A stretch of DNA of 63,286 bases, the filler included, from Folioceros fuciformis (taxonomy: Eukaryota), in assembly GCA_049999805.1 (NCBI GenBank). It is 13 parts of 13 records of this genome, joined end to end, with 100 filler letters (N's around TTAATTAATTAA, not from the genome) between each part and the next. Parts side by side here need not be neighbours in the genome. Positions count along the whole stretch, not along the records: positions 54,745 to 56,024 come from JBNGIO010003501.1; 12 more parts are not named here. One strand, given 5' to 3'. This document shows positions 10,616 to 63,286 of this stretch, piece by piece. Position numbers and translations under genes: made by a program. The notes beneath the pieces are model-generated. The model was not told the origin of the DNA, searched no databases, and saw nothing but the letters and a program-made list of their open reading frames with translations. The first letter of the stretch is position 1. Every line of letters begins with the position of its first letter.

Positions 10616-11459
10616 GAAGTCTCAGGATAGTCTAAGAGGTGGTAGATCCTTGTGGTGGTAGGGCCAGGATCTCATTGGTGGCAGGATGTGCTAGAAGTCC
10701 AAATAAGTGGCTGGAGATAGCTGGCTAGGCTACTGGTTCTATTAAAATAATATTTCTCAAGTTAGAGAGAGGTGAAGTCATAGAGAGAGAGGCTCCTTTA
10801 AGATCAGGTGAGCCTGTAGGAGGAGGGAGTCATTCACTTTGGGAGTTAGTATGTCACCTCGTGAGCTCTTGGAGGTCCTCTCTTCACGAGCTCTTGTGGT
10901 TCGTCCCTGCTTGGTTTAGGACCTGCAGTGTGTTGCCAGCTGTGCAACGTCTGGTAGGATCGCAAGCCGCGTGTTGCCGGCTGTACAGTGTCTGGTAGGA
11001 TCGCAGGCAGCGTGTTGCCGGCTGTACAGTGTCTGGTAGGATCACAAGTTGTAATGACTAGGGTGAAGGGGCTTGCCCCTAGCTCTTGATTGTAAAGGAT
11101 GTGTCTTTCTCTCAACCTGTCCACTCTTGTTCCCTGTTTGGACAAGTGCTGTAGGCCGGCCATGTTTCATGGCGTCTGGTAAGGTTGTGGGGAGGAGATA
11201 CCCGAGAGGGGAGTGTGTTCCCTTCTTTCTTCTCTTTGGGGTTAGTCTAGTGACTCTTGCCGGGTAGGAGTCAGTAGGGNNNNNNNNNNNNNNNNNNNNN
11301 NNNNNNNNNNNNNNNNNNNNNNNNNNNNNNNNNNNNNNNNNNNNNNNNNNNNNNNNNNNNNNNNNNNNNNNNNNNNNNNATGTCTCAACGACAGTGGGAT
11401 AAGTGTGGCCACTAAAGGTGGAACCCATTGGCAATCAGTGCCCGGGGTTTGCCTCCACA
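10616..11459 (+). mobile_element. LTR family 1, middle and 3' part, abutting a Copia gag
   Basis: 11081-11459 matches 61719-62323 and ends ...GCCTCCACA. Copia sequence follows directly. Confidence 0.85.
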
Positions 11460-14400
11460 CAAATCCACCAGGAACAGCTGATAAGATTTAGAAGTGGAAG
11501 AAAGGGAATAGAGTCGCATTTGCTATCTTACTGTCTGGACTTGATGAAGTCACAATAAATGAAGTGGACTTTCTTGAGACAGCTTTTGAAGTTTGGGATC
11601 AGCTCACAAAGACTTACCAAGTCAATAATATTAGTTTCTACTCAAAATGAATTCTATGGTTTGAGGATGAAAGAAAGGGACTCTGTTGGAGCACACGTCA
11701 CTCAGATGCGCACTCTACGGGCACAATTGGCCGCGCTAGGAAGCAAGATGTCTGATTCGGATGCCATTGCCCAACTATTGTCCAGCTTGCCTTCATCCTA
11801 CCAGAATTTTGTTTCTAGTTAGAATTCAGCTCTTCGTGACTCCTACAAAGCTATAGCTGCTGGCCAACCTTTCCCCTTGAACATCAATGAGGTTATTGGG
11901 GCACTCCTGCAAGAGGAGCAAAGCCAAAGCCGGAGCAAGTCAAGGACTCGTTTCAAAGGCGACAAGGTCCTATATGCTCAAGCCAAAGGACCTTGGAAGG
12001 GGAAAGATAATAAAGGAGGCAAGAAGCAATCCAGCGATTCCAACTCACCTCCATCCTCTTTGACTAAAAGGCAAGGCAACTGCAATTGGTGCCAGATCCT
12101 AGGGCACTGGGAACGTGATTGCCTCAAAAAGAAGGATGGTGAGCCTAAGCGTGAAGCCAAGCAGGAGGTTCATACCACTTCTAAAGAGAAGAAGTTTGCT
12201 GGTTCTCAACACAGCTCACAACAGAAGAGCGGCAAATCAACTACAGCCTTGACATTGTCCAAATGGAATTCCTCACAATGGTTTGTCAACTCAGGAGCCA
12301 CGATGCACATCGGCAACAAACATGGTCTCTTCTTGACCTTTCACAAGCAGACATCACCACAGTCGGTATTTGTAGGCGACTCACGAGGTGTTCAAGTTAA
12401 GGGATCCGGTTCTGTGGACATACATCTTCTTGATGGGTCTTCCTTGTTGCTGGAGGATGTGCTATTGGTTCCAAACATTAGTAAAAACCTTCTGTCCATT
12501 AGGGCCATAGCTCGTAGTCACAAGTATGGGTTTAGGTTTGAGGACAAAACCTACTATGTCTATCATCTCACAGATCCAAAGAGTCATGTTGCTAGAGCAG
12601 TTCTAGTAGATGATCTCTACCAACTTATTACATTACATGAGTCAAAGGCTAGAGCTTTTCTTACTGCTTTTCATGCTCAAGCTAATCTGTGGCATGCTAG
12701 GTTGGGCCACGTTAATCGTTCTAAACTAGATTTGATGGTTAACTCTTCTTGCTATCGTGAGTAATTACCTCCTTGTTTCAAGCATCTTGTAGCCTACAGC
12801 TCTTGCATCTTGTCCAATAAAAAAGAACTGCCCTTTAAGAACAAACTAGCAACTCGAGCAAAGCATGTTTTAGAGCCTATACATTCTGACATTGCCGACA
12901 AGTTGCCTGTGAAGTCGCTTAGAGGAGCAGAGTACTACCTTACCTTAACTGACGATTACTCTCGATACACATGGACCTTTCCTCTCAAGTTGAAGAGCGA
13001 TGTGTTTAAGACTATCTCCACATGGATATAATAGGTACAACGACAGGCTGGTCAGCTGGTGAAGTGTTTTCGTACTAATAGCAGAGGAGAGTTTACTGGC
13101 AGATAGTTTTGATGATCTTTTTGCTACACATGGCATAATTAGACAACTCTCAGTCCCCTACACGCAGCAACAGAATGGAGTTGCAGAGCATAAAAATCAG
13201 ACCTTAATGAGCATGGTGAGGAGCATGCTGTCATGGTCTGCTTTTCCCAAGTCACTATGGACAGAAGCAATTGTGTGTGCCACTTACATCTTAAATAGGG
13301 TGGTCACTTCATCTCTTATAAGTAGGACTCCCTATGAGGCATTTTGGGGTAGAAAGCCAAGTCTTCTCTACTTGAAAATCTTTGGTTCCCCTACCTTTGC
13401 CCTTGTCCCTGAACATGAAAGGAAGAAGTTAGATGATAGGTCTAAGCCCCTCCTTTTTGTAGGTTATTATGAAGAGTCAAAGGCTTACAAACTTCTCGAC
13501 CCTATGACATCTAGGATTACCTTGTCCAAAAGTGCTACCTTCACTGAACTCACCTCTCGTCATTCAGATTCCTCTATAGAGCGGCTCTATCCTGTAGATC
13601 CTTCCATTGTTAGTGATGATGTGTTTTTTGGTCTAGACTTAGAGCCTACACAAGTGTTTTATCACTTCCCTGAATCTGACGGTGAGGAACAGCCTCATGT
13701 TGCTGCAACAGCAGAGCTAGATTCTGTTTAGGATGAGGATAATGCAGTAGTTCAAAACGATGCAGCCAATCCAGATTTTGCAGCAGTCCCAAACTTTTTG
13801 AATCTGGATGAAGGGGATGATCAGTTTGTTTAATCAATTGACTCACATGTTTCAGACAAACTTGCTGTGGATGGTGCTGCTTCAGTCGTAGGTGATGATC
13901 CTGTTGTGGATCATAATGATTTTGAGGAGCCTCCTCCACCTCGGTACCCTATGAGAGAATGTAGAGCACGAGAAGATTGGGCAGAGACACCTTATCAGTC
14001 CATTGATTTTAGGAGATAGTCCGCTCATGTTATAGATATGCGTGTACCTAAGGTGAGGCCTAACCCACAGAGTTATGAAGAGGCCCTTAATGGTCCTGAC
14101 AGCAAGCATTGGCGTGTCTTCATTGATGACGAATTCAATTCCCTAATGAAGAACAACACTTTGGAGTTAGCTGACTTACCACCTAGTCGCAAGCCTATCT
14201 CGGGTAAATGGGTTCAAAACCAAATTGAATGCTGATGGCACCATCTCAAGGTATAAGTCCAGGCTGGTTGCGAGGGGGTTTAGCCAGATCCCTGGTATTG
14301 ACTATGGAGATACTTTCTCGCCAGTTATGAAGTCTCCTTCAGTAAGGATCTTGTTAGCTATGGTAGCTAAGTTTGATCTAGAGTTACATCAGATGGATGT

Positions 14401-17612: not shown

Positions 17613-19944
17613 ATGGTCGAAATGGGATCGGAAGCTTGTCCACCGACGAGGAGAGTGGACCGGAGATGGCTTTCGATGCTGGAGATGGCGTTCCTGCTGG
17701 CACTTCTAGGCTGCGGCCGCTTCACCCCTGCTGTGGCACACGACGGGTACGTCTACAGTCCCTTCATGCCAAGCTGGACCGAACACACCGAGAAAATGGA
17801 CATCAAGGACGACGACCCCATCCCCGACTCGACGCAGCAAGAGGCTGTTGCAAGCTTGGAGAAGGCCCAGCAGTTTCTGCAGCGGGCCGGTGCTGTCCGG
17901 GTCACGGTCGGAAGCTGCAAATCCCAAATCAACGGGGCTGTCGGGTCCCTCACGTGGGTGGAGACGTACCTGCTGGAGAATGACCTCAAGAACGCCTTGG
18001 GGCAGCTTGATGGAGCCAAGAAGATCCTGGCAGACTGCAACTCCGCTCTTGGTCTCAGCACTGTAAGGCAGCCTGCATAGGTTTTGTGTGGCATGCATGC
18101 ATGGCGGGGGACTTGAGAGCAAGCATCCTGCCGCAGGCAACATTATCATCCCTTCAGCCCATTCCTTCCACACGAATACTACAGATGCACCAGTCTTTCA
18201 AGAATCAGAAAGAGCTGCTTGCTGCAGGAGAGGCAAATGTGGGGACAGGGCAACAAGCCAGCAGAATCACCAAGCACAAAGCATGCGCAGAAATAGTTGT
18301 CTTTGAAATCCAGATTGATGACTTGTGGTTTTTGCGTGCACCGGAGCTCTAGGTCAAATTAGGAAAGGCACAGCTGTTCCTGACCAAGAAAGCCATGGGC
18401 CACATCGAAGATGCAGTGGCAACCCTGAGCCCCCTGCTTGAAGGCAATCCCAACACCGGCAACAGTGGCGCAGGCCGCGGAGGAGGCAGTTCTCCAGACA
18501 AGCGTAAGATTCAATTCAGCAGCAGAAATGCTGCAACAAGAGCAGAATACAGCACAGGCCACAGGCCAGCATCAAGCACGACATCCATCCATGCCATGAC
18601 GCAATGCCCCTCCCTGCATGCAAGAGTGCACCCCATGAAGCTAGCAAAGCAGTCATGACACGTGCACGGACCTGACCTCCTCCTGCCCCTGCTGCCTGCT
18701 GTCCCGATCCCAGCTGTGGAAACCTGGGGAGACAACGGGGACAGCAACAGCAACATCTGCTCGGCCGACGGCACCAAATGCCAATTCTCCAGTTGCGGGG
18801 CCGGGAAGGCTCTCGGGACCTGCTCCTTCGGCTTCGCAGCGGGCGTGTCAGGGGGAGCTGGCGGGCAGAGCTACGTGGTCACCAGTCCCAGCGACGACCC
18901 AAAGAACCCGGCTCCCGGCACCCTGCGCTACGGTGTGAACCAGGGCGGGCACAGCAACGGGGGCGTGTGGATCACCTTCTCCAGGGACATGGTGATCGTG
19001 CTGCAGGACATGCTGTGGCTCCGCAGCGCCACCACCATCGACGGGCGCGGCCACAACATCACCATCACCGGCCGCAATATAGTGCTGGGCGGCGTCTCCA
19101 ACGTCATTCTGCACAACCTGCAGGTGAACTCGGTGGGCGAGAGCGACACCGTGCACATCTTCTCGGGCTCCTCCAGAATCTGGGTAGACCACATCACCTC
19201 CTTCGATGCCAAGCTCGGGCTCGTCACCGTCTTACAAGGCTCCACCGACGTCACCATCTCCAACTGCTGGCTCTCCAATCCCAATTTCAACATGCTGTTG
19301 GGGGCATCTGACGCCGACACCGAGGACCAGAACTTGCGCGTTACCGTCTTCCGAAACTGGTTCAAGGACTCCATGCAACGCATGCCCCACTGCAGGTACA
19401 TCTTCCTCCCTTCTTCCCTTCGTCCATCAACTCAACCAACCCATGTAATCAGAGCAGCGCAATTCCACCCAACATCCCTGCAGCAATGTTCTCCCTTGCA
19501 TCCAGTCGCTCCCCTCCAATGCATTGGATTACCCAAAGGCAGCCTAAACAAAAAGTTCTCCTCTCCAGGTGGGGATACTGCCATGTTGTCAACAATCTCT
19601 ACACCAACTGGGGATACTATGCCTTAGGAGCTCGAGTGCACGCCAAAATATTGTCAGAAAGTAATGTGTTCATTGCAGCTCGGCGAGCAGAAGTGACGCC
19701 ATGGTTTGCTGGTGACTCCACTCTGGACGAGACCGCCACAATCCAATCAGTCCGGGACCTGTTCCTCAATGGCACCACGTTCCACCAATTCCTCACTTTT
19801 GGCACGGCTGCCCAACCATCCTACGTAATCACTTCACACTATCCACCCATCAATCCTCCTAGTACACTCACACCTCTGGTACAACGTTGTGCGGGAGCTT
19901 TGTTTGGGCCCAAGCTCCAGCAATGTTTGTCTATATCAATCTAG
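17613..19944 (+). CDS. Secreted PMEI-like domain plus pectate lyase (PL1) fusion protein, 552 aa; join(17613..18062,18353..18503,18714..19395,19569..19944)
   Basis: Three GT-AG introns have consistent phases (0, 1, 2) and the CDS totals 1659 nt. There is a hydrophobic signal segment. PL1 motifs: GTLRYG, TIDGRG, WVDH, QRMPHCRWGYCHVVNN. The N-terminal helical domain has a C..C pair spaced as in PMEI; that assignment is less certain than PL1. Confidence 0.88.
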
Positions 19945-23293: not shown

Positions 23294-24060
23294 TGCTCCC
23301 CCACTTAAGCTGGCCAGGTCCTCCTGGCCGATCTATCTCTGAGCTTGGGAAGCTTGCATCTGAGCCCGCAAGTGAGGGAAGTGATGGCAAAAGGCTGCGG
23401 GTTCCCAGGTTGCAGCACTGTCGGGTTCACATGTCCATGCCACGAGGAAGTTTGTTACACAACGAGAACGGAGCTGGCGATCGCGGCGCTAGAGGATACG
23501 ATGGGGCTAGTGAGGGCCAAAACTTGGCGGCTGGGCCAGGGTTTCCGAACCAGAGCAGTTTGGAACGGCGGGAGTTGCCAGGGGGGGGCACCTGAGCGAA
23601 GGAGCTTCCTGGGGCTGGCCTGGGCGGGGAAGAAGGGTGTGATGCTGGTTGCTGGTCGGCAGAGGGATCTGGTGGATGTGCAGGTAGGGTTGTGGTGGCA
23701 GGTGGTGGGCAGGAGATCACCGGTTTGAGCATGGAGACGTGAAACGCCTGCAGAGACGCCAATCAACGGGAAGGTCAAGCTGGTATGCGATTGGGTTGAT
23801 CTGCCTGGACACTGTGAAGGGTCCGGCGTACCAGTAGGATAGCTTATCCCGTGACTGGATCAGAGCTGGGTAGTGGTGAGGCTTCACACGAAGCCACACT
23901 TGTTGGCCGACGCTGTAGCAGACTGCCTGGCGATGCTTGTTAGCTATTTTACAGGATCTGTCCCGGGCAGCGAGGAGTTTCTCCTTCGCCAACTTGACCT
24001 CATGCCAGATATCTGATGAAGGAGGTTTAGGGTTAAACAACAAGCCGAAACGTAGTTAGA
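23294..24060 (-). mobile_element. Chromovirus Gypsy 3' end: integrase C-terminus, chromodomain and PPT. The 3' LTR starts at 23293 and runs toward lower coordinates.
   Basis: YAGPFTV...AYQLDLP...FHVSMLKP. A chromodomain reads PHRIL*RRDRQLRSRCVTNFLVAW..EPDSAATWEP...HHFPHL at ~23370-23510. The PPT AAGTGGGGGAGCA is followed by TG. Confidence 0.88.
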
Positions 24061-24306: not shown

Positions 24307-25080
24307 CTAATGATGCATTCTTGTACGACGCATTTCTTCAAATTCATGAATATACATCCACAACTCAGTATACCAAAATTCCCTTGCTGACTGATCATGG
24401 TACTGTTGAATAACATGTATTCCATGTTGTTGTATCATATGGATAATCCTTTCGTAATTGCGATCATTTATGCTTCATATTTCCGTAATAATATCCAGTA
24501 CAAGTTGAGCGTCACCCTGGGACAAAGGATCCATTTGTACTTGACTTTGTTGATCTTGAGATGTTGATCTATGGTTTGCGTGATCTCTAAGAGTAGATAT
24601 AAAAGTAGATGTAAGACGCGTTTCTTCAAAATCTTCAATATACCTTTGCAACTCATTAAACCACAATTCCCTATCTAATTCATCATTATAGTGTTGAATA
24701 ACACGTATTCCATGTTGTTGTATCATATGGTTAATCCTTTCGTAATCACGATCGTTTATTCTTCGTCTTTCTGTGATAATCTCGAATACAAGTTGAACGT
24801 CCTCGGGGGACAAAGAATCAATTTGTACCTCACCTCGTTGATCTTGAGACGTCGATGCATTCGAAACGTTGTATGCTATTTGTCGTCTGCATAGTGGACA
24901 TGTTGGTTGGTTACAATGAGCCAACCATTGCCTTAAACATGTTGTATGATATGTATGGGCGCAAACATTGAGTATTGTTATATCTTGGCCATGGTTAAGA
25001 GGGTTAAGACATATGGCACAAGTCTCGTCTCTTTGAAGAACAACATATCGAGATGTATCATAAAGCAAGCAAATATCCAT
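24307..25080 (-). pseudogene. Intronless RING-H2 finger ORF with two 96-aa tandem repeats and a premature TGA at 24475-24477
   Basis: C3H2C3 motif CAIC...CAHTYHTTC...W...CPLC. ATG at 25080. A 288-bp duplication is present. The frame continues past the stop to 24307. Confidence 0.8.
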
Positions 25081-25675
25081 TCCTCTAGAGGGAAAAACCC
25101 ACCACCCAAGAAATTGAATGTTAAGCAACTTTTGTATGTTGTTGTGCCTTGCCCTGGTCGAACTCTCTCTTGTGGTCTTCAACCAAGTATGCTCCCTACT
25201 CAAATGAAATCGAGGCCAAAAGAATCGGGATGGCTTAAGATAGATTGACACCTATCTTAAACAATGAAGTAGCTTGTGCTAAGCTAGTAGGATTTCTTGA
25301 GAAATTCTAATGGCTTAGAACAAGTGGATACATAACTTTAAGAATCAAGCACCATGTGTCAAGATCTCTAGTTATGTGATGCTTGGATCTCTTGTTGCAT
25401 GTTTTCATCTCTACTTATATGCTTCAAGCCCTATGCTTACCTATTCCCGAAATAGGTAAGTACACCATGGTAGAGGAGTTGTTAAGTACTAAATTGGTTC
25501 GGTTGCTAAAACAAACTATTCATAGACTGTTAGGTCATGATCAAAGTTATTAAATTATAAATTGATAATTAGGTGGATGGCCATTGTACAAGCCTAATTC
25601 AGCTTCATCTATCCTAAGGCCTTGCTTATCCCGTTGTCACCCACAATGAATTGCATTGCAGACTACTACCCATCC

Positions 25676-26124: not shown

Positions 26125-27223
26125 CCGTCTGCCGGACACGGCATGCACATTCCCCGCTCTAACAGTTTTCGGTCTAAAACCCCACCTTCTTCCTTCGGCG
26201 ACGAACCAGCAGCCGGATACAGACCTGCATACGCCACTTCACTCCTGGACCTCAGACAAACAAGAAAAAAAATATCAGTCAAGACCCACGTAAGGTGTAT
26301 ATACTACCCTACCCACCTACACTGCTGCCATCTGTGTACCTACCCAGTACTGTACAAATCGAGGGCAGGGCAGAGCAGGGCAGGGCAGGGCGGGGCGGCC
26401 CACATTCCCCTCCATCACAGATTCTGGCTGCGCATCTTGCCCTGCCCTGCCCTGGGCTGGGCTGGGCCCACCACCGGTTCCTTTTACCGGCATCTAATCT
26501 CGGTTCAGTATATTTGTATAACTTTCAAGGCGCAGTCGCCGTCTATATATGTAATCGGCGTTCTGGTCGTAGGCTGCGCGGAGTCCCAGTTGCCAGCAAC
26601 TTGGCCACCGATTCTCACGTTGGCACGCCAGATGGGCCCGCGCTCAGCTGCCGCGTAGCCCACTAGCTCCCACGTCCCCCGCCCACGGGACCAGGCCCCC
26701 GCCCGGGATCCCCCTGGTCCGTCCATACCCGCCTCCGCCTTCTCTCTTCCTCCTCCTCCCCTCAGGGCCCTTTCTCTCTCTCTCTCTTTCTGTCTCCCGC
26801 GTCCGGACGCGTTACTGTGTTGTTGCCCTGCCGAAGGCGCGGGCGGGGCTCTGCCGGAGGCGGCAAGGCGGAGTCGGGGCTGAGCGGACTTGCTTCCCGT
26901 GTGGTGCACGCTCTGAGTTGTTGTTCTTACTCTTGCTCCTGCCTGCCCCGCGGCCTCTTAAACCCGCCTCCTGCCCGGCCTTTTTCCTTCTCCTTCTCAT
27001 TTGCATTCTTGCTCGAGCGAACGCGGGGCGGGCCACAGGNNNNNNNNNNNNNNNNNNNNNNNNNNNNNNNNNNNNNNNNNNNNNNNNNNNNNNNNNNNNN
27101 NNNNNNNNNNNNNNNNNNNNNNNNNNNNNNNNNNNNNNNTGAGCTCGGGTGGAGTTCTGAGTGGATCTGAGCTGGGGAACGGCATCCGGCGGCGGACGGA
27201 GGAGAGGGTTTCCCGGCTGTGGC

Positions 27224-30056
27224 ATGGTGATTGCCCTGGCCGGGGCCATGGCTCTCTACTCCAGCTCGCCGCCCGCAGGAGTTTGGTCTTCGCAATGTGC
27301 GGTCGGGGGTAATGTCGCCGCAGGGATGGAAGTGGAGGTGCTGTCGCGGAGCACGGCGCATAATTCGGCGTCCAAGACTGGGGTGTTGGTTGGAGGGTTG
27401 TCGTCGATGTTTGCCAGCTCCGGGGCGCGCCATTCGGTGTGTGCCGGCGGGGAGGTGTCAGAGGCGCCGTGTTTGTCCATGGGGATGGTGCGGAGCGGGT
27501 CGCAGACAGACCTGGCGTCCTTCAGCGGGGGCTCCGAGAGCCGGAGCATTCCCAAGCTCAAGGAACGTAGTCCTGTGTCCGTGCTGTACGGACCTGGGGG
27601 ACCTGTTTCTGTGTCTGCCTCGAGTTCTGCTTCGCACTGCGGCTCGCATGGCTCGGCGATCTTGTCGCTGGCGTGCGAGTGGGAGATAGGGAGCGGGAGT
27701 GCCAGTACCAGTGGGGCGGATCACGTCTGGGAGCGAAGACGGTGGCCGTTGGACTATCGGAGGGGCGTGAGGGCCGACGGGTTTGATGGCAGGGGGGAAA
27801 GGTTGGCAGCTGCCTTTCGGTCCAGAGTCTTGGATCTGCGCAGGCCCGAGGCGGACCTGGGGTCCAGTGACTCGGAGGCGTCTGATTTTGGGGATGACTT
27901 GGAGCTCGAGGGTTTGCACACCGATGAGTCGGCTTGTACCGATGCCCTGCGTGGCCCGGCTTGGGATGTGACAGATTCTCGTGAGAGGCTTTTGGGCCTG
28001 GCGGGGAGGGCTGCTGGTCTTTCTGCGTCTCTGACTCAGGACGTGTCGGTGGCTGAGAATGTGGTCAAGCCCAAATCCCCTGATGAGATGCTTAGTGACG
28101 CCCAGAGGCAGCACCCAGTTTTCAAAAACTCGTCCGTTGTAAAAGCTTTCCGCACTGCACAAGATGCTCACAATGGTCAGGTACGTGTGGCAGAAATACT
28201 GCTGTTATTTCGCTCTTTGGCTGCGAGACTCTTGTTTTCATGTCTGGTGTTTGCTCGGTGTGATGCAGTTCCGCCGTAATGGAGATCTGTACCTGGCGCA
28301 TTGTGTGGAGACTGCCCAAATCCTGGCAGCTTCCGGGGCGGACAGTACGGTTGTTGCCGCCGGCCTGCTTCACGATACCCTGGATGACGCATCCCTCGAT
28401 GAATCACAGCTTCGTCTTGAATTTGGAGACGAAGTGGCTGGCCTCGTTCGCGGGGTATGTCTACTGCCTCTACTTTCTGTTTCACTGGTCATTGGAGTCG
28501 ATGACGCGGCTCCACGAGCTTGTGTGTTTGTCATGGGTTGTTTGCTTACAGCTCTGTTCTGCACTACAGGTCTCCAAACTGAGCAAATTCAGCCAGCTAG
28601 CTCGTGACAACAAAACTGTGTGCAACTCTGTGGAGGCAGATCGGCTACGTACCATGTTTCTTTCTATGGTGGATGCTCGTGTGGTTCTTATTAAACTGGC
28701 AGACCGGCTGCATAATATGAGAACGCTTGGTGCCTTGTCGCCTGCGAAGCAAAATCGCATTGCTGATGAAACTCTTCACATCTTTGCCCCTCTGGCAAGT
28801 CGACTGGGTATCTGGAGCTGGAAAGCTGAACTGGAGGATCACTGCTTCAGATATTTGAGGCCTGAAGAATATAACGAGTTGTCTCTGAGAACGGCTGAGG
28901 GAAGGGGTGAAGACGAGTTGCTGTCCTCTATCAAAGAACTGGACCAGGCTCTACGAGAGCAAGGTGTAGAGTTCACAGATCTCTCTGGCCGGCCCAAGAA
29001 TCTGTACAGTGTGTACTCGAAAATGATCAGGTAAGTAATCAAGCAGGAGCCTTTCCGGTACCCGTACGACCGTTTTTTTTCCCTTGTCCCTGCGCCTGTG
29101 CCTCATGAAGAATTTCTTCGCGTGTTGCAGGAAGGGCCGGCATATGGATGAAATATTTGACTATCATGGCCTACGTTTAATCCTTGAAGATGAGGCAAGC
29201 TGTTATGCTGCTCTGGAGGTGGTACACAGGCTGTGGTCACATGTGCCAGAGAAACTGAAGGACTACATAAAATCACCCAAAGAAAATGGGTAAGCTTCTT
29301 GGCCTTTTGTTTTTTCGCCTGATGTTGGTGACAGGAACTACTTCGAGTGCGACTTCTCCTAATTCGGTTACTACTGAATTACTGCAGATATCAGTCTCTG
29401 CATACTGTTGTTCGTGGTCGTGAAGGTCATTTTTTGGAGGTTCAAATCAGGACTGTCAAGATGCATCATCAGGCTGAATTTGGTCTAGCTGCACACTGGC
29501 GATACAAGGAGGGAAACCATAAGTATTCGTCTTTTATACTTCAGAAAGTGGAATGGGCTCGCTGGGTTCTGACCTGGCAAAGTGAGATTATGGATACCAA
29601 AGTCAGGCTGTCACCTGCTCAACCAGATCTCAGGCCACCTTGCCCTTTCCCTCTCCACAAAGATGACTGCCGGCATTCCTCTGTTTGCTATCTTCCTCCA
29701 CAACATGATGACGATCCTCTGTTTGTGATATTGTTGGAAAATGACAAGGTACTTGACTTTTCTTTATCTCACTTTTCAGTTTCACGTTGCTGTTTCGTCC
29801 CTCTTACGGCTACAGCTTTCTGTAAGAATTTTGCCTCTGATATGGGCAGTTCGCCTTCTGTCCGACACACGTGTTAACCTGAAACAGTGCTCGTGATGCA
29901 GATGGTTGTCCAAGAATTGGTACCAGGGTGTACAGCAGCAGATGTGATGGTGGAAAGACGAAAGACGTATCCAGACTGGGACTCCATATGTGCAACCGGA
30001 AGCTTTAGCAGGGAGATGAAGGCAAAAGTTAATTGCAAGTTTGTAGACGATGTTCA
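27224..30056 (+). CDS. RSH2/RSH3: RelA/SpoT homolog, RSH2/RSH3 class (ppGpp synthase/hydrolase, probably plastid-targeted), 3' truncated; exons 27224-28180, 28269-28454, 28570-29030, 29131-29289, 29388-29748, 29902->30056
   Basis: The N-terminus [16 protein letters not shown] resembles plant RSH2/3. HD-domain motifs [33 protein letters not shown]. Synthetase motifs [35 protein letters not shown]. Intron phases are consistent. Confidence 0.95.
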
Positions 30057-44125: not shown

Positions 44126-46657
44126 TTATTTCCACAGCTTCACACATTTGTCATGGCTGGCAGAAGCAACCATGCCAGTTGCCTGAGACTGCGCAAGAGC
44201 TGCGATGAGACCTTCGTGTGCTGCCACAGTCATACTCTTGTTCTCTAGCATATTCCACAACTCCAAAGACTGCACACAGACACCACCGTTAGAAGAGACG
44301 GGTGTTGCACATCTGACTGTGTAGATTGGAGCACGAGTGCGTCACCAGATGCGTGCGTACCTGATAACATCCGATGACGAGAAGCGAAGGGTAGTTTGGA
44401 TGGAAGACGCAAGAGTGGAACTTGTTCCCGTTGCTGCACAGCTCATGGATGCAGTCTCCATCGCTGCCATTTATAGACCAGACTCGAACGGAGTCTTCAC
44501 TGACAGAGGCCACGTAGTCGCCCGTGGCGTCCCAACACACGGAGTGCACAGGCTTGGTATGTCTCTGCATTGCAATGAAAATATCAGCGTCACTGCATAT
44601 GGCTACTCCGAGCATGGTTGTATAAGGCACTGTGAACAAAAAGCGGCCGGCACCTGGAGGCTGTGCACCACGGTTTCTGATTCCACGTCGAAGATCGAGA
44701 CCTTGTTTTCAGCTGCTGCTGCCAAATACCTACCCACCCGGGGCTGGAACCTCATCTGCGACATCCCGCCCTGCAGTGCGAAAAATGTTAGGGACAGACG
44801 TCTGATAAGGTCCAGGTTACGAGGCTGCCAGTCTGACAACCGACCGACCACAACCGAGCTAACATAAACCTTCGCCATTGATTTGAGAAGCGGATGCAAC
44901 CAAGGTGAAATTGACGTGAACAAACCGTGCGATGTAAGGTCACCTTGAAAACTCTACTGCACACACCCTGGCTCACACTCCAGTAGCGGATCTCACTGTC
45001 ACCATCACAGGAGCATAGGAGATCATCGTTCTTAGGATGGAAATCGAGTGATGTAACCGATGTTTGATGACCCGAGAAAGTTCGCAATGAGAATGTTGGC
45101 TGCAAGGTGTTCCACGAGTCAGTCATAGTTGTTGAGGAAGGAAAAAATAAGGACATCGACTAACGTTCAGACCAGCGAAATTCAAACATTCCAATCTACA
45201 GCTTTCCGGCACACATGCAGTGACACCAATCTCAACATGGGTGGGAGGCATCAGCCTCAGGGGACCAGGTCACTAACATTGTCTGCATCCCAGACCCTCA
45301 CGGTCTTGTCGAAGGATGAAGTTGCCAGACGTGTAGAACCAGGACTAAACCTCACATCTGTGATCAAGGAAGAGTGCTCCACCAGGGTACTCTTGAGGCT
45401 TAACGTATCCATGTTCCACAACACAGCCTGCAGCCAGAAACAAAGGTGTACAACTGATGTTCAGTGCGGGCACCCAGCATATAAGCCAAAGCAAGAAGGA
45501 AGCGATTAAAAATAAATTGAGGTTAGGTCCACCAACTTCAAGCAATTAGACTATAAAACATGCCAGCATAAAAGCAGCACAACCTTCTTGTCATGTCCAG
45601 CACTGGCCAGCAACTTTCCGTCCGCAGAGAAATGACAACAAACAACCTTGCTGTTACTAGCCCGAAGGCAGCCAACTTCATTGAAAGAAAAGCCTGGTGA
45701 TCATAACAAAAACACTTTCAAGACATCCTCCATAGACCAAGAGCGTATGCAATATGACATGTAATGAGAGTCATAATTTCACAGCACCAAACCTGGCTTC
45801 TTGCAGACAACAAGGAAGAAGCAGGCTGAGAAAAATTAAAGTACATCACCTAATTCCATCCAAGAGATTAACCCAGCAATATTAGACTACAGAAGGTCTG
45901 GACCATTATCATGACCTTTCGTAACATCTACACTGTGACCGGCCGGACTCCGCTTGCTGCTACCAAAGAGTGACTCCCGAGCATCTGTCTCTTCATGGGA
46001 GAGGAATGACTCCACATTATCATCTAACGATCCATCCTCAAAACGGTCCATGTCCACCTGAGATTCAAAACGGTTGTGTCGATTAGAGAGTGCAGTGCAG
46101 CCGGGAAAGGAGAAGGGATCTGCAACAGTTCCACATGACGGCAAGGCCTTACCAGCTGATTTGGTGAAGCCAGAGTGCCTGTTCCATCAGAACCATACAT
46201 GATCAAAGGCTTGGATATGCTACCACTATGTTGCAAACCAGCCATTGACATCACATCCCCAGGTGTATGAGTAGAGGGTGTTGAAGGGGCAGAATTAGGA
46301 GAAGGACCAGCTGTGTTCGCAGTTCCGGTGCTGTTTGCCGGTCCAGAGGATGATGCAGGCTGCTTTCTTTTCCTTCCTCCTGGTTGGTTTTTACTGGCAG
46401 CCTACAACACATAATACAACAGGCCCATATCAGGTGACCGGCGCTTCCAACTATTCTGCCCTACACCAGACCTGTCTCAGGGTTTACCTTTCCAGTGCCA
46501 GTACTGTTAGTGCTGGGACTTGGCTCCAGTGAGGCATAAAGCTGATCATTCGGCCGGAATGAGTTTGACATATTACCATCAACAGTCACTCCACCAACTG
46601 CTCCAAGCCTATCCTGCTGCTGCTGCTGAGGGGTGACAGGCTGTTGCTGCTGTTGAG

Positions 46658-46689
<32 letters not shown>

Positions 46690-48353
46690 CTCCCAGGTTG
46701 GTGCTGTTGTGCCTGCTGCTGCTGTTGTTGCATTTGAAGTTTCATCTGTCATCAAACACAGGGCAGGCCACAGGGTGAAGTGCATGCTAAACGCATTTCC
46801 ACCAATGCTCCTCATCGCTCATGACTTGGATTAACTCATCAGCAATAAATTCATCCAAGTGAAGGATGGGCGGATGAAAGTTGACTCAGCTGTCTCAGTG
46901 AGCTGTTCTTGGAAGTTCACCTTCATGAGGAGCTCAGTATCTTGTGAACTCCCACGTGCTAGAGGAGAATTAGCTTGTAAAGGAGAGCCAACACCTTGAG
47001 ACAAGTCACTGCCAGTTGACTGAACATCTCTGCCAAGATTTCGGCCTAGAGTTACTCTGCATCTTCGAGGATCCATCGCATCAACGGCAGAGCCAGACAA
47101 TGCGATGTTCCCAGCTTGAGCCTGTTGTAGAACTATTTGCTGCTGCAGAGGCGACATGTTCTGAAACTGCTGGTAAGACTGCATGTTGTGGGATTTCTGT
47201 TGAACCAAACCTGATCCCAAACTTGGCCTAAATTGATCAAGGGCCTACAATCCATCCCATCCCATCCCAAATAGCATCAAAACTCTACAATCCTCAATTA
47301 TGCTCAATCCAAAGATGCCAGGGTCAACAGGATAGAAAGAACAGACAAAGCACACACGACTGAGGACCTTAAACCAAGCACATATCCTGCCAACATGACA
47401 ATCCGGGAATGACGTTCCTCCACATGAAAACTAAATTGAGAAAAGATGACTCCAACAAAGTTCTCTGTGTTTTTGCTTCCAGGTCAAGGAGACATACATT
47501 GAGTGGCCATCCTTTCAAAGGTGCATTCACGCCTGTTGAAACAGAAATGGTACGAGGGTCATACTTCACGGCAACCTTAACCTAAAGAAGGAAAACTGGG
47601 AACTAACCAAGGAGCTAGTAAACACCTGGGCTCAATAGGCTAGCTTTAGTATGCCCAACTCCACCCACAGCAAACAGGGTTGGATCAGGAGCCGGAGACC
47701 TTTGGTTCAACAGATTCACATCACCCTTTGAGTCCTGTCCACACAGAAACAATCCAGCTCAGCCACAGACCAGGAGGTTTGACTCTGAGGAAGCACAAGA
47801 GCACTACGGTAAATCACCTGAGACGCTCCAGATAGCTGATGTGAACGGGCTTGGACCTGCTGTAGCGCTGCTGTGGCATTGCCAGCACCTCCTGGTAGGG
47901 GCCTGAAAATTCAAAGTCCAAGATCAAGAGGGCACCAGCATCCAGACGATGACAGCACACATGCAGATGGTCGATATTACACATGACACTTAGGCACTCT
48001 GTCCAGTTGTACGTAAGGAACAACTGAAGCACTCCTCTTACAGATACTGGGCCACAAGGGCGGGTGATATGATGCGATCATACCTCTGCATTGAACAGTA
48101 ACAACAACACAGTCATCAATCAAAACTTCAAGGCACGGGCAGCTGAAACCAGCACCACATAAAGCCTAGTGCTACCAAGTGCCGAACTACAAGATTTTGT
48201 CATTCACCTTCATGGCTGGATCATCAAGAGAGTCCCTTGGATGCTTCAGACGCTCTTCATAAATCTTGGTAGCCAGGGCATTCGCCGTGGGTTGCGGGAG
48301 TCGCATGGCGTCAGCATTCAGGCCGTTTGCAGAGCCATTGAGGCCAAGGTGAG
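44126..48353 (-). CDS. LUG: LEUNIG-family (Groucho/Tup1-like) corepressor with a Q-rich region and C-terminal WD40 repeats, 5' truncated; 3' exons 47244-46921, 46745-46488, 46401-46153, 46057-45916, 45693-45584, 45427-45278, 45099-44944, 44770-44654, 44564-44361, 44269-44126
   Basis: Motifs [100 protein letters not shown]. The listed GT-AG junctions are in frame. Confidence 0.95.
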
Positions 48354-54644: not shown

Positions 54645-54744
54645 NNNNNNNNNNNNNNNNNNNNNNNNNNNNNNNNNNNNNNNNNNNNTTAATTAATTAA
54701 NNNNNNNNNNNNNNNNNNNNNNNNNNNNNNNNNNNNNNNNNNNN

Positions 54745-55481
54745 CAATCAAGAAGGGGCTAAGGAAACTGTGCTTATGGATGCCCAAGACATAGTGGGAT
54801 TTGGCCCCACCATACATTGCCATGGGGTACAGGCTCAGCAAACATGCCTCCTTAGCTCACTTCAGACCCTACTTTTTGCTGTTTGGGAGGGAGCCCATAC
54901 CGCCCAGCGCTAATGCCAAGCAAATGGCAGGAGTTTTGGATCTGGATGACCCTGCTGCTTGGGCGCGTACTATTGGTGAGAAGGCTGCATTGTTCAGGCA
55001 AGTGATGCCCATGGCAATGGCCAATCTTTGCATTGCACAGCACCGGGACACATTGCGGTATGCCTACACTCGCAGTGGTAGTTTCAAACCCAAACTGAAG
55101 AAATTTCAAGTGGGGGATTTTGTATACTTGCAATGCCAAACAGGGGACACTTTGGACACTATCAGCAGCCATCATGTGCTGCGAATCAAGGAGGTCCGAC
55201 CAAATGGGGTCTTGCTACTGTAAGGGTTAGATGGGCGCACCATCATAGACCATATGAAGAATTGCGCGCCCTGCCACCTTCCTAACTTGGACCCAACCAT
55301 TGTCACCGCCGATTGGATTCCTCCTCGAGATTACCCATGCCAGGTATGTTGAAGGATTGATGACGCTGAGTTGGTGCTACTTTGTGACCATTGCAATGGT
55401 GGTTACCATCTATTCTGTCTCAATCCACCTCTCTCAGAGGTTCCTGAGCAGCTTTGGTACTGCCCTTGTTGTGCTGCACTG
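54745..55481 (+). mobile_element. Gypsy-type integrase C-terminus fused in frame to a PHD finger, decayed
   Basis: AMGYR...PYFLLFGREP...FQVGDFVYL is followed in the same frame by [42 protein letters not shown] (C4HC3). Two stops intervene (55221, 55350). Confidence 0.88.
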
Positions 55482-56124
55482 NNNNNNNNNNNNNNNNNNN
55501 NNNNNNNNNNNNNNNNNNNNNNNNNNNNNNNNNNNNNNNNNNNNNNNNNNNNNNNNNNNNNNNNNNNNNNNNNNNNNNNNNGTACAAATGCTGAATGTGC
55601 AAGCCTGGAACCCCAAGCTTCAAGTGGGTGCTGGCCAGACTCAGGACTCACTCATCACAACATTGCCCTAGCACGACAGCTGTCATGAAGGTGACCGCTG
55701 ATTAGGTGAGAAACCCTCAGCCAATGTTGTTTAGAATAGGATAGCAAATATATGTTTTAAATGCTAGGATAAATGAACTTAGCTTAGGTAGATATTTCGC
55801 AAACTAGCTTAGAAATAGCTAGATGTTTCTAGGCAAGTTGAGTCTGAACACACGTTGGGTATTTCCCAACTTGTTGGTGGTGTAACCTTGTTGCCCAACA
55901 TGGCAACGTGGGGAAACAACAGAACTTAGGGTACGCTAGCAAGGCATCATGGAAGGAGCAGTGTTGATGCAAGGGCATGAAGCCAACTCAGCTGGACGTT
56001 GGATCATGAAGATGGCTGGCGTTANNNNNNNNNNNNNNNNNNNNNNNNNNNNNNNNNNNNNNNNNNNNTTAATTAATTAANNNNNNNNNNNNNNNNNNNN
56101 NNNNNNNNNNNNNNNNNNNNNNNN

Positions 56125-57737
56125 AGTGGGATAAGTGTGGCCACTAAAGGTGGAACCCGTCGGCAATCAGTGCCCGGGGTTTTGCCTCCACACCAAGCCA
56201 GAATTGGAACCCAGTCGTGCTAAGCACTGGCAAGTGAAGGTGGCTCCAATAGAGGAACTAGCTAAGAGAAGTCCAAGAGGCTGTGGGAGGCTTGATGGTG
56301 GTGGAGCGGGTTGCCAGGATAGTAGCTTGTTGTCAGGGGGAAGCCAATGGGGGTGTTCTGAGTGACACTCCACGGATGANNNNNNNNNNNNNNNNNNNNN
56401 NNNNNNNNNNNNNNNNNNNNNNNNNNNNNNNNNNNNNNNNNNNNNNNNNNNNNNNNNNNNNNNNNNNNNNNNNNNNNNNCAATTTTGAAGAGGTGACCAC
56501 AGTACTGGAAGAAGGGGAGGAAGAGTTGTCAATTTTGAAGAGGTGACCACAGTACTGGAAGAAGGGGAGGAAGAGTGGTCAATTTTGAAGAGGTGACCAC
56601 AGTACTGGAAGAAGGGGAGGTCCGAGGGGTTTGAGAGAGTTAAGGGCAGTTTTGAGAGGCACTGGTGATTGTTGGTAGGGGCAACTAAGTGTCCGAGAGG
56701 TAATGGGCAATTAGGTGCAGGGGTAGGTTAGAGTTAGGCTTTGGTTAGGCTGCGATCAGAATTAGGTCTAGGTGAGACCTGGATCAAGTCTAGGTCAGGC
56801 TTAGATTAGGTTTAGGTCAGAATTAGGGATGGGCTAGGTCAGAGAGAGACTGTCGGCAGTGGACTGAGGCTAACCTAGTAGATAGAGGTAGGGTCTTGGG
56901 CCGGGGTAGTATAAGAGGCCAGACCTGCCATTGAGGAGGGGGCGGTCTATGGTGTGAGGTCCCCGGATTTTGTGGGTGGAACTCCTGGCTTAGGGTGCTG
57001 AGCCGGTTGAGGTCGACCCAAAGTCCTGATTCCCCTTGCCACTAGGGGAACGTGGGGATCCCGGGGCTGTCAAGATCCGTGTGGCCGGATCCGCAAGGGC
57101 TACATGATTCGCAGGTTGGCTGAAGTGAAGGAACAGGACCGTGAGCTGAAGGGCTATCCAGTCCTAGATCCACACTATGCTTGAAGGCTGCAAGAAGTGA
57201 AGCCATTGTGCCTAATTCCCAGGGGGGAGAGCTGAAGAAAAGAGAGGAAGAGTTGGAGTGGGATGCATAGAAGTGAAGGGTGAGCTACTGAAGAGTAGGA
57301 GTGTGTGTTGAAGTGGAGGGTGGAGGACTGAAGTGAAAAGGAAGGGACTGAAGTGGGAATCTTGGAGGGCTGAAATGAAGAGGAAGGGACTGAAGTGGGG
57401 ATCTTGGAGGACTGAAGTGAAGAGGAAGGGACTGAAGTGGGAATCTTGAAACGCTGAGGTCAAGGAGAAAGTGGCTGAAGTGGGAATCAAGAAGAGCTGG
57501 AGGACTGAAGAACAGGAGTGTGAGTTGGGTGAGCTGACTTAGGGGGTAGGCTAGGCTTCTAGCCCTTTTGTTGTGAGTGTATGGACAGACCTATAGACCG
57601 GCTGATAGGTAGAAGTGCGATAGGTAGTGTTCCTTGGCACTAGTTCACTCCCTTGGGAGCGAACCATAGGACTGCAACGACAATAGGGAAATGTGTGGCC
57701 CCTTGGGTGGTTCTTGGGTGCAAGAAATCACTCCACA
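56125..57737 (+). mobile_element. Family 1 LTR end (56125-56192) followed by a family 3 LTR ending at 57737 with no PBS
   Basis: GCCTCCACA ends at 56192. ~56700-57737 matches ~7480-8509. A 50-bp tandem repeat lies at 56480-56620. Confidence 0.85.
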
Positions 57738-60954: not shown

Positions 60955-63286
60955 GCAAGCCCAAGCCAGCTGAATGCTCATAGTGTTTTACTCGCCCTAG
61001 GGCCTTGGTCAGAATATCGGCCATCATGGCCTTTGTTGGGCAATACACCACCTGAATGATCCCAGCTGTGGCCAGCTCTCGAACATATTGGTGCTGGATT
61101 CCAATGTGCTTCGTCTTGGCGTGATACCTCGGGTTCATAGTGAGCGCGATTGCGCTTTGATTGTCGCAATACAGTTGGATTGGCAGCTATTGTTTGAAAC
61201 CCAGCTCTCAAAGAGCTCCAACTGTCCACACTATCTCCTTGCTGGCCTCGGTAAGGCTTTTAAATTCAGCCTCTGTGCTTGACAATGTGTGAACCTCCAA
61301 AGTTTGGGGTAGTAGTTTGTTTTGGTTGANNNNNNNNNNNNNNNNNNNNNNNNNNNNNNNNNNNNNNNNNNNNNNNNNNNNNNNNNNNNNNNNNNNNNNN
61401 NNNNNNNNNNNNNNNNNNNNNNNNNNNNNTATTTTTCCTAATTTTCCTTGATTTTCTGGTCATTTTTCCTATTTTTCTTTGTGCTAATTAAGTTAATTGA
61501 CCAGGAAATAGTTGGTTTGGTTATAAGAGTGGGTATAGGTTTGGTCCCAGAGCTGGGAAGGTTTAGGTTCAGTACCGGGCCATAGGGTTGGGTGATTAGT
61601 TTAATATTATTTAAAGATATAATATTAAATAATAATATAATAATATAAAATAAATATAATAATGGTTTGAACATAGGAAGGGGTATCTGGGTGTGTCAGT
61701 GTCAGGGGTCAGGGGTCAGGGTGAAGGGGCTTGCCCCTAGCTCTTGATTGTAAAGGGTGTGTCTTTCTCTCAACCTGTCCACTCTTGTTCCTTGCTTGGT
61801 CAAGTGCTGTAGGCCGGCCATGTCTCATGGCGTCTGGTAAGGTTGTGGGGAGGAGATACCCAAGAGGGGAGTGTGTTCCCTTCTTCCTTTTGTTTGGGGT
61901 TAGTCTAGTGACTCTTGCCGGGTAGGAGGAGTCTGTAGGGAAGTGTAGAAGGTAGTGGTGTCGTTGCTGGTTGCTGGTAGTTGTTGGTGTTGGTGCTGGA
62001 ACGAGAGAGTGAGTGAAGTGAGTGAAGGAAGTCGCAGATCTGAGAGGTTAGAGTCGTTGTAGTGGCTGGAGTGAGTTTGTGGGCACCGAGAGAGGTGCAG
62101 CTGACCGTCGGACAGCGAGGCCTGTCCTACGCCTGATCGGAGCTGGAGGGGAGCCCTCGAATCCATCATCGAGTTGATCAAGTCCGACCCTCCATCCACA
62201 GCAGCAAGGAACCCCATCGCTCCTTCGTGGGAACGAAACCCAATGTCTCAACGACAGTGGGATAAGTGTGGCCACTAAAGGTGGAACCCGTCGGCAATCA
62301 GTGCCCGGGGTTTTGCCTCCACACAATGCTATTGTTGGCTATTTCTTGCTGCTCCATCCAACTGCAGCTCTAGCTAGGAGGGTGACATAGCTCGACACAC
62401 TGCGTCGATCATCAGGGTCTCCTGCCCAATCTGCATCATTGTATGCAACCAAGGTAAGCGGCTTGTCTGCTTTTGCATTGTATAGTAACCCCCAATCTAC
62501 TGTTCCTGCCAGGTATTGGTACTGCCTGGTCATCAGGTCATTGTGCTTGGCATTGGGGTTTGATACAAACCTAGACGTCAGCCCAGAAGAGAAGCTGATG
62601 TCAGGCCTGGAACCGATCATCATATGCATGACACTACCATTTCTGGATGCATAATCCTCGACTGCAGGGATCTCTTCTTTAGGTATGTCCCCAACCTGTG
62701 CAGAATACTTGACATTCTGCTCTGCTAGGGTTGCCACTGACTTGCAGTTCTCCATACCATATCTTGCCAGAATTTCTCTAGTGTATTTTGCCTGATGCAA
62801 GAATATAGTCCCAGCTTTGCGATCTCTCACCAAATGCATGCCCAAGCAGAAGTGAAGAGGTCCAGAATCAGTCATCTTAAATTCTGAACCTAGTTGTTGT
62901 TTTACAATTCTGATCATCTTCCAGGAATTGCTCATGACAATAATGTCATCCACGTAAATGGCAAGTGCAAGCAAATTCTTTCCTTCTCGCTTGACATTCA
63001 CTTTGCTGTTAGCATGGATACTGACATAGGAGAGTGCATTCAGGAAGGCGTCTATGCGTACATACCAAAGCTCTTGGACTTTGTTTAAGTCCGTATATGG
63101 TTTTCTTCAATTTGCACACAGGTCGAGGAAGGTTGGACGTGACTGGAACCCCTTCAAGTACGTCCATAAAGATCTCCTCGTCTAGCTTGCCATAGAGGAA
63201 TGCGGTTTTGACATCTAACTGCTCCAACTCCAGGTCCTCGACAGCTGCTAGTGCAACAAACAGCCTCAGGGTCGTGAGCTTGACCA
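60955..63286 (-). mobile_element. Decayed Copia RT-RNase H interrupted by a solo LTR
   Basis: Motifs QLDVKTAFLYG, YGLKQSPR, IYVDD, DADWAGDPDDRRS, SKK*PTIAL|SSTEAEF, HAKTKHI, MMADILTKAL. Confidence 0.95.
61288..62323 (+). mobile_element. Family 1 solo LTR, internally deleted, with 5-bp TSD CAATG
   Basis: TGTG...CACA termini. CAATG at 61283-61287 and 62324-62328. Removing the LTR and one TSD copy restores IALSSTEAEF. Confidence 0.93.

Follow-up and report, generated by a model that had tools for sequence, protein, structure and literature searches.

The closest described counterpart of the retroelement family reported here is KnitGypsy-Dnmt3 of Klebsormidium nitens, in which a Dnmt3-type methyltransferase is encoded within the Gypsy Pol (de Mendoza et al. 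2018, PMC5890265), and which a 2026 preprint lists as a streptophyte Gypsy-DNMT3 (10.64898/2026.05.21.726589). According to the legend of Fig. 4c in the former paper, it has DIRS-like A-coding-B-A-B repeats, as has the family from the hornwort Folioceros fuciformis. A PHD finger is not mentioned for KnitGypsy-Dnmt3 in the searchable text and three supplements, figures aside, and the text consulted gives no priming, junction or integration model; the methyltransferase was inactive in yeast, an outcome that the authors call inconclusive (PMC5890265). PHD or chromo fusions to transposon domains are common across eukaryotes (bioRxiv 2021.11.30.470311), and in Chlamydomonas reinhardtii the elements Gypsy-7a_cRei and REM1 carry a PHD accessory domain that was proposed to lessen harmful insertions, Gypsy-7a insertions being 2.6 times more intergenic than expected (PMC9940879, PMC8557442). 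Gypsy-7a differs from the hornwort family by two near-complete LTRs and by the absence of a listed methyltransferase (PMC9940879, PMC8557442). Chromoviruses such as MAGGY, Tcn1 and Tf1/Sushi also have a histone reader at the integrase C-terminus (PMC6317226, PMC3350952, bioRxiv 2021.11.30.470311), and the self-priming layout of Tcn1 and Tf1/Sushi is that of the hornwort family (PMC6317226); the main text of the REXdb paper and of the chromodomain survey does not mention a PHD.

The hornwort family differs from these chromoviruses by a PHD without chromodomain, the lack of a Tf2-type SH3, a separate reverse transcriptase (RT) branch and split repeats. In REM1, the PHD is reportedly encoded in a separate antisense frame with a chromodomain. 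DIRS, Ngaro and PAT elements share the A-coding-B-A-B layout and pass through a circular intermediate, but use a tyrosine recombinase, whereas the hornwort family encodes a DDE integrase, and its copies show TG...CA ends and target duplications of 4 bp. The integrases of foamy virus and HIV-1 can cut palindromic LTR-LTR junctions of circles to yield processed ends (PMC1180852, PMC4372172), so that the chemistry of an internal cut has a precedent. In those viruses the palindrome is the join of two cDNA ends and its cleavage a side path (PMC1180852, PMC4372172), whereas in the hornwort family the palindrome is part of the LTR itself and distinct from the junction formed by end joining, and integration would normally take this route.

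Here, the family is described from a window of 63,286 nucleotides, which consists of 13 joined parts of assembly GCA_049999805.1, and from its other copies in the genome. An exon of the RelA/SpoT gene in this window is most similar to its counterparts in Sphagnum (71%), Riccia (70%) and Marchantia (69%), and less so to those of Selaginella (61%) and flowering plants (57-62%), which indicates a land plant of bryophyte grade; its equal distance to mosses and liverworts would suit a hornwort. It has the tested features of Gypsy-DNMT3 elements, i.e., a DNMT3-like domain in Pol and DIRS-like repeats, the Klebsormidium element being compared by its description; the latter was reported from one alga, whereas the present family occurs in a land plant, in several subfamilies, and has chlorophyte relatives with a shifted methyltransferase. 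The reading proposed below, to which we give an even chance, is that in an old and little-described green Gypsy clade, present in chlorophytes as well as in land plants, the integrase site has shifted away from the cDNA ends and into an LTR-internal palindrome; two-LTR circles with joined ends would be its regular substrate for integration, and its polyprotein would combine a reader of H3K4me0 with a de novo DNA methyltransferase. Neither a land-plant Gypsy with PHD and DNMT3 nor an LTR-internal integrase site was found in the literature consulted (mostly open-access text, figures and bioRxiv supplements aside).

The element in the window begins in a 737-bp contig flanked by N runs (54745-55481). 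As the original prediction stated, a single frame (54747 to 55481, 245 codons) runs from integrase C-terminal sequence through KNCAPCHLP into a complete C4HC3 PHD finger; it had counted two stops in this frame, where three are present (Table 1). The PHD was matched by PF00628 over the full model length (residues 198-242, E 1.8e-9, 37.9 bits, cut-off 24). The fragment starts directly after the catalytic Glu of the integrase, and Pfam gave no integrase match in it alone; its assignment as retroelement integrase, as had been predicted, follows from its 78% identity to the end of a 2386-aa frame at another locus (L031), which has H2C2 and rve domains and in which the D-D-E residues are visible. 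The L031 equivalent of the small C-terminal domain forms four strands in the predicted model (mean pLDDT 90). The content of the gap behind the PHD was read from copies C1847, C6131 and C5561, and loose contig ends at 55479 continue likewise. The window copy is dead; compared with the five copies closest to it, its identity is about 91%, and the differences comprise 45-53 transitions versus 11-14 transversions. The Cys of the Pro-Cys-His motif ahead of the PHD, conserved in 140 of 140 relatives, possibly belongs to an extra metal site.

Table 1. Parts of the element in the window; positions count along the whole stretch.
Feature	Position	Strand	Remarks
Integrase core end and long helical linker, Ty3/Gypsy pol	54747..55100	+	stop 54792; 78% identity to L031 frame end
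Small beta-strand integrase C-terminal domain, ending KNCAPCHLP (55257-55283)	55101..55283	+	stop 55221
C4HC3 PHD finger, last polyprotein domain	55338..55472	+	PF00628; stop 55350
Assembly gap	55482..55581	.	in close copies: short frame tail, G-run polypurine tract, first half of repeat B
Repeat B first copy, 3' half	55582..55678	+	91% to B of C1847
Palindromic B/A junction, core CA-GC-TG, proposed integrase cutting site	55672..55688	+	pattern matches; same core in subfamily B
Repeat A second copy, 5' part, ended by scaffold end	55681..56024	+	88% to A of C1847

The window fragment was matched at least 152 times in the genome, in groups of roughly 65-88% and 42-52% identity. Uninterrupted copies encode gag, protease, a DNMT3-like methyltransferase, RT, RNase H, integrase and PHD, without chromodomain. 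In the L031 frame these are a protease (744-840), a C5 methyltransferase (about 985-1310), RT (1476-1638), RNase H (1701-1830), integrase (1952-2119) and PHD (2330-2374), with the stop 12 residues on, and the Ty3/Gypsy domain order PR-RT-RH-INT is thus present. This frame carries rve and contains no tyrosine recombinase, and L031 has no other frame of at least 300 aa. The window's own subfamily, A1, likewise has the methyltransferase (C5926, C5561). Since the 737-bp contig is bounded by N runs, the window alone cannot rule out a chromodomain behind the PHD; other copies exclude it, as the frame ends about 5-45 residues on in intact-looking copies, checked among the 20 of the 30 top loci in which the motif was found, and the polypurine tract follows about 40-60 nt behind the last PHD Cys. 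The PHD is also kept between subfamilies, and hence is a family trait, as had been proposed, and no one-off capture.

Several copies showed further peculiarities. Three of subfamily B (L035, L036, L050) are near-identical to each other with differing internal deletions (RT-RH, or RT alone), retain methyltransferase and PHD in long open frames, and are possibly non-autonomous derivatives. A complete copy lies inside a tandem-repeat array (G000:C6246 around 202000-204000 and 213500). The PHD of copy C5926 is interrupted by a 580-bp insertion of another abundant LTR, the ends of which also occur at 56125-56207, 11393-11475 and 62256-62338 of the window and in L047.

The methyltransferase, which the original prediction passed over together with the split repeats, has DNMT3A as its best solved match (E 1.5e-9). 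Its catalytic Cys is kept in 137 of 139 relatives, and so is the Glu-Asn motif (137/139); the residue before the Cys is mostly Glu in place of Pro. The domain is under purifying selection (pN 0.26 and 0.47 versus pS 0.76-0.78), and neither ADD nor PWWP was matched in the DNMT region of the element. Between subfamilies the PHD has a pN of 0.18-0.20 at a pS of 0.79-0.90, similar to RT and integrase; given this low pN at saturated synonymous sites, selection kept the PHD during the activity of the element. As to CpG depletion, the family (0.34-0.61) does not exceed the other Gypsy elements of the genome (0.31-1.0).

Relatives were collected by a methyltransferase search (60 proteins) and an INT-PHD search (244 proteins, best 120), and 157 distinct proteins were analysed; a profile-free search gave 264 cluster representatives at E 1e-30 or better. 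The named hosts are Haematococcus, Chlamydomonas eustigma, Tetrabaena, Monoraphidium, Hariotina and Closterium, in agreement with the predicted occurrence of PHD-bearing retroelements in green algae; no relative named Klebsormidium was among the listed DNMT and INT-PHD matches. The same integrase tail with PHD ends 140 of the 157 relatives, a count that the INT-PHD search favours by design; among matches of the methyltransferase search alone, PF00628 was found in 44 of 60, and five of the 60, including a Closterium protein, reach the integrase tail without PHD. PF00385 was absent from the domain lists of all 157. The methyltransferase has two placements, PR-DNMT-RT in the hornwort and Closterium, and RH-DNMT-INT in the named chlorophytes; five relatives without it retain INT-PHD and nest among the chlorophyte type. 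Because the same tail is common in green-algal proteins, the tail of the family is old. The top matches of an atlas search were PHD clusters of Chlorophyta (scores 0.94 and 0.93).

Two side observations concern the wider range of these proteins. At rank 5 of the atlas search stood an 80-member cluster with H2C2, rve and PHD whose commonest phylum is Mollusca (score 0.82), and integrase-PHD fusions may thus also occur in animals. P0135 and other chlorophyte relatives have tails of 300-500 aa behind the PHD, with a stretch that looks Tudor-like by eye and a weak match to an N6-adenine methyltransferase (PF02086, E 0.003, below cut-off); such Gypsy elements would unite a PHD with methyltransferases of both types, and could be compared with the 'EpiLTRs' described in a preprint (10.64898/2026.05.21.726589).

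Sequence comparison places the PHD closest to the solved fingers of Lid and KDM5 PHD1, UHRF1, WSTF, CHD4 and BAZ2, and a fold search with a predicted model of pLDDT 90 agrees. Unmodified K4 is the ligand of KDM5 PHD1 and of BAZ2A/B, and PHD fingers hardly ever combine an acidic residue ahead of strand 1 with a cage tryptophan (PMC5415848). In the window and in L031 the PHD carries this acidic residue, aligned to that of KDM5 PHD1, and thereby combines the features of an unmodified-H3K4 reader: a C4HC3 core, an acidic residue before strand 1 and no cage tryptophan. Among the 140 relatives the zinc ligands are nearly invariant, and 129 have Gly two positions ahead of the PHD His, which we take to be the position of the cage tryptophan; an acidic residue (D or E) before strand 1 is present in just 44. 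The PHD thus looks like a reader of unmodified H3K4, and binding to the unmodified H3 tail is likely. When the PHD was modelled, without alignment, together with residues 1-33 of the H3 encoded in this genome, the score was 0.25 against a mark of 0.34. Retroelement coding sequence was present at 8 of 35 insertion flanks versus 4 of 42 arbitrary tiles (p 0.13, tiles non-independent; 8 of 17 control stretches were N).

We propose that the PHD binds H3 tails with unmethylated K4, which we hold to be likely, and, with even chances, that it tethers the integration complex to K4-unmethylated nucleosomes away from H3K4me3 promoters, much as the chromodomain does in chromoviruses; PHD-based integration targeting is plausible. 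For the methyltransferase, methylation of the cDNA or of the new insertion would be its probable task, although we put this no higher than an even bet.

The family could be viewed as a chromovirus that swapped its chromodomain for a PHD in land plants, which the original prediction came close to in naming the PHD as standing instead of a chromodomain. The PHD does occupy the same polyprotein position, and self-priming is common to the Tcn1 and Tf1/Sushi chromoviruses (PMC6317226). Such an origin is nevertheless very improbable: SH3_Tf2-1, the GPY/F tail, was matched neither in the window fragment nor in the L031 frame, although it was found in two other Gypsy frames of the genome and at 23294-24060; the RT is only about 31-39% identical to those of the genome's other Gypsy elements; and in an RT-RH tree the 40 family rows stood apart from 6 chromovirus-like and 4 other Gypsy rows with an SH-aLRT of 99, in a quick, unrooted tree of 50 rows in which all non-family rows are from this genome, without named references. 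The tail common in chlorophytes argues the same way. Because the family groups apart from the chromoviruses of this genome, 'instead of a chromodomain' holds as an analogy: no chromodomain follows the PHD, but a reader swap inside a chromovirus found no support. Chromovirus-type elements do coexist with the family, as predicted, at 23294-24060 and in other Gypsy frames; in the former, on the minus strand, a Tf2-type SH3 was matched at E 1.6e-10, and a chromodomain only weakly (E 0.0009, 19.6 bits, below the cut-off of 25.1). The element works like a chromovirus by its reader on the integrase, yet without chromodomain and Tf2-type SH3, and it is reasonably probable that it belongs to a Gypsy-DNMT3 type of Ty3/Gypsy family that is old in the green lineage. 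The PHD may, alternatively, serve the methyltransferase in the manner of the ADD domain, which belongs to host DNMT3, by recruiting or stimulating the enzyme at H3K4-unmethylated chromatin, without a say in the insertion site. The joint occurrence of both modules in most relatives (the 44 of 60 given above), the assignment of the PHD to the unmodified-H3K4 class and the lack of an ADD or PWWP match would all suit this; on the other hand, the PHD stays with the integrase while the methyltransferase occurs in two different places, five relatives have INT-PHD without it, and in the hornwort RT and RNase H lie between the two modules, which the protease presumably separates. We therefore regard this as unlikely, and keep to a PHD that acts with the integrase.

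The ends of the family were defined in the copy on C6246, which lies between ATCT flanks, begins with TGTCGTG and ends with CACGACA. Repeat A (470 bp, 97%) opens the element and recurs near its end, and a 111-bp repeat B (96%) stands on either side of the second A, giving the layout A-coding-PPT-B-(GC)-A-B, a permuted form in which two complete terminal direct LTRs are absent. A G-run, the polypurine tract, immediately precedes the first B, and the inner B/A junction is a palindrome with the core CA-GC-TG. A pattern for this junction, admitting GC, AC, GT and AT spacers only, matched 20 times in the genome versus 0 times for the reversed control (GC 12, AC 4, GT 3, AT 1). Downstream of these 20 junctions a second B was detected at 12 by script and at 2 more otherwise; three others end with the contig, two are unclassified, and the one on C4012 reads B-A-primer site beside a gap. 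Target duplications of 4 bp flank all eight solo A-B units with both flanks (four exact, four with one transition) and all three whole copies with both ends, one of which has an internal 5-kb gap. The NCGN preference of Phygy-type elements (PMC6317226) is absent, with CG in the middle of 0 of 11 duplications.

In each of the subfamilies A1, A2 and B, the first A is followed by a primer site of which 10-14 nt can pair with a stretch midway along A, and changes in one are compensated in the other. Subfamily B, at about 50% protein identity, also keeps the tract, the palindrome and the 4-bp duplication. All 42 collected A ends share one boundary, followed by either the primer site (19) or B (23). 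At the 23 A/B joins mostly 0, 1 or 2 G of the tract are kept, with about three irregular joins; this variation is as imprecise tract cleavage would give. The type of join follows lineage in part in A2, where 3 of 3 copies of the youngest clade are alike, and differs between A1 sister copies. Letters shared by just two B copies were found within the same element in 9 of 13 cases in A2, 8 of them from one divergent copy, and in 3 of 23 in A1 after removal of truncation-caused columns, against 3% expected; the closest match of the second B was the first B of its own element in only 2 of 9 elements, a test of low power because the copies form a star. The mirror product, A-B-A-coding-B, would be expected if both sites were cut, but was not encountered intact; the A subfamilies contained a single B-A-primer-site case and subfamily B a single tandem. 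This product could have been masked if the longer A repeat collapsed in the short-read assembly. Ends of the form coding-B-flank are present in C5615, C2911 and C2822.

An ordinary element with A+B as its LTR was rejected on account of the primer site lying behind A and the polypurine tract ahead of B, and so was an assembly chimera, given the many independent copies. At L134 (G000:C4012), a reversed B end lies within pol of the same family, adjoining the B-A-primer-site stretch; it may have arisen by autointegration or through an error of assembly.

A replication route that would account for this anatomy starts with a transcript whose 5' end, very probably, lies within A and which serves as its own primer at the site following the first A, while the plus strand starts, with the same high probability, from the G-run before B. 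As the primer site and the tract fix its ends, the linear cDNA would be B-A-coding-B-A, with ends other than TG/CA; with a reverse-transcribed LTR of the form B-A lacking these ends, the integrase would have to cut inside the LTR, and we consider it highly likely that it does so at the palindrome. If the two strands of CA-GC-TG were each cut behind CA, and hence in a staggered fashion, recessed CA ends with 2-nt overhangs would result, which is the normal product of integrase processing. That before this cut the cDNA is closed into a circle, by joining of its right end (A) with its left end (B), is favoured by a narrow balance; the A/B join seen in integrated copies consists of precisely these two ends, and if this joining comes first, a cut at the palindrome by the primer end would yield A-coding-B-A-B. 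As a whole, the mechanism of end joining and internal cutting, in which circle, cDNA and transcript are all predicted, appears moderately probable.

The same A-coding-B-A-B product with variable joins would also arise without a closed circle, if RT, on reaching the right end of a linear cDNA, jumped to a left end and recopied B, with the integrase cutting the outer two palindromes. This would account for the rare mirror product as well; the coding-B-flank ends mentioned above rather fit a cut one-LTR circle, although B-B recombination would produce them too, and we judge the jump possible but doubtful. It is far less probable that the family replicates like DIRS or Ngaro elements, with a full-length transcript copied into a single-stranded circle, the inner B/A copy acting as template for the circle junction and the A/B join being inherited. 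The repeat order is that of DIRS-type elements (PMC5890265, legends), and the join types that partly follow lineage in A2 are what inheritance would leave; against it stand the frame without tyrosine recombinase, the 4-bp duplications, the A1 sister copies that differ in join type, and the coincidence of the A and B boundaries with primer site and polypurine tract in three subfamilies whose synonymous sites are saturated. End joining as a circle followed by cleavage at the internal palindrome thus remains the preferred route.

The PHD alone is a modest addition, PHD accessories being already known in algal transposons. The surprising part would be the end structure, as inferred from sequence anatomy in three subfamilies: if the integrase cuts inside the LTR after end joining, this would be a DDE-integrase retroelement with the circle as its ordinary substrate, a route long set aside for retroviruses. 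Moreover, as a reader of unmethylated H3K4 would here be paired with a DNMT3-like writer, the family could be used to ask if a transposon silences, or disguises, new copies of itself. The elements in REXdb were derived from LTR-FINDER with TG and CA demanded on both LTRs (PMC6317226), which, as the first A ends without CA, suggests why the clade is missing from REXdb as far as consulted.

Besides the element, the window contains 12 gaps (e.g., 54689-54700) with a 12-base all-frame stop linker between N runs, which marks joined separate scaffolds, so that sequences across it need not be true neighbours. An intronless RING-H2 frame (24478-25251, minus strand, PF13639, E 5e-11) lies beside a 288-bp duplicated unit, and host genes at 18659-19941, 27161-29874 and 44292-47244 encode a pectate lyase, a RelA/SpoT homolog and a Gln-rich WD40 protein, the last of which, judged by eye, presumably resembles LEUNIG.
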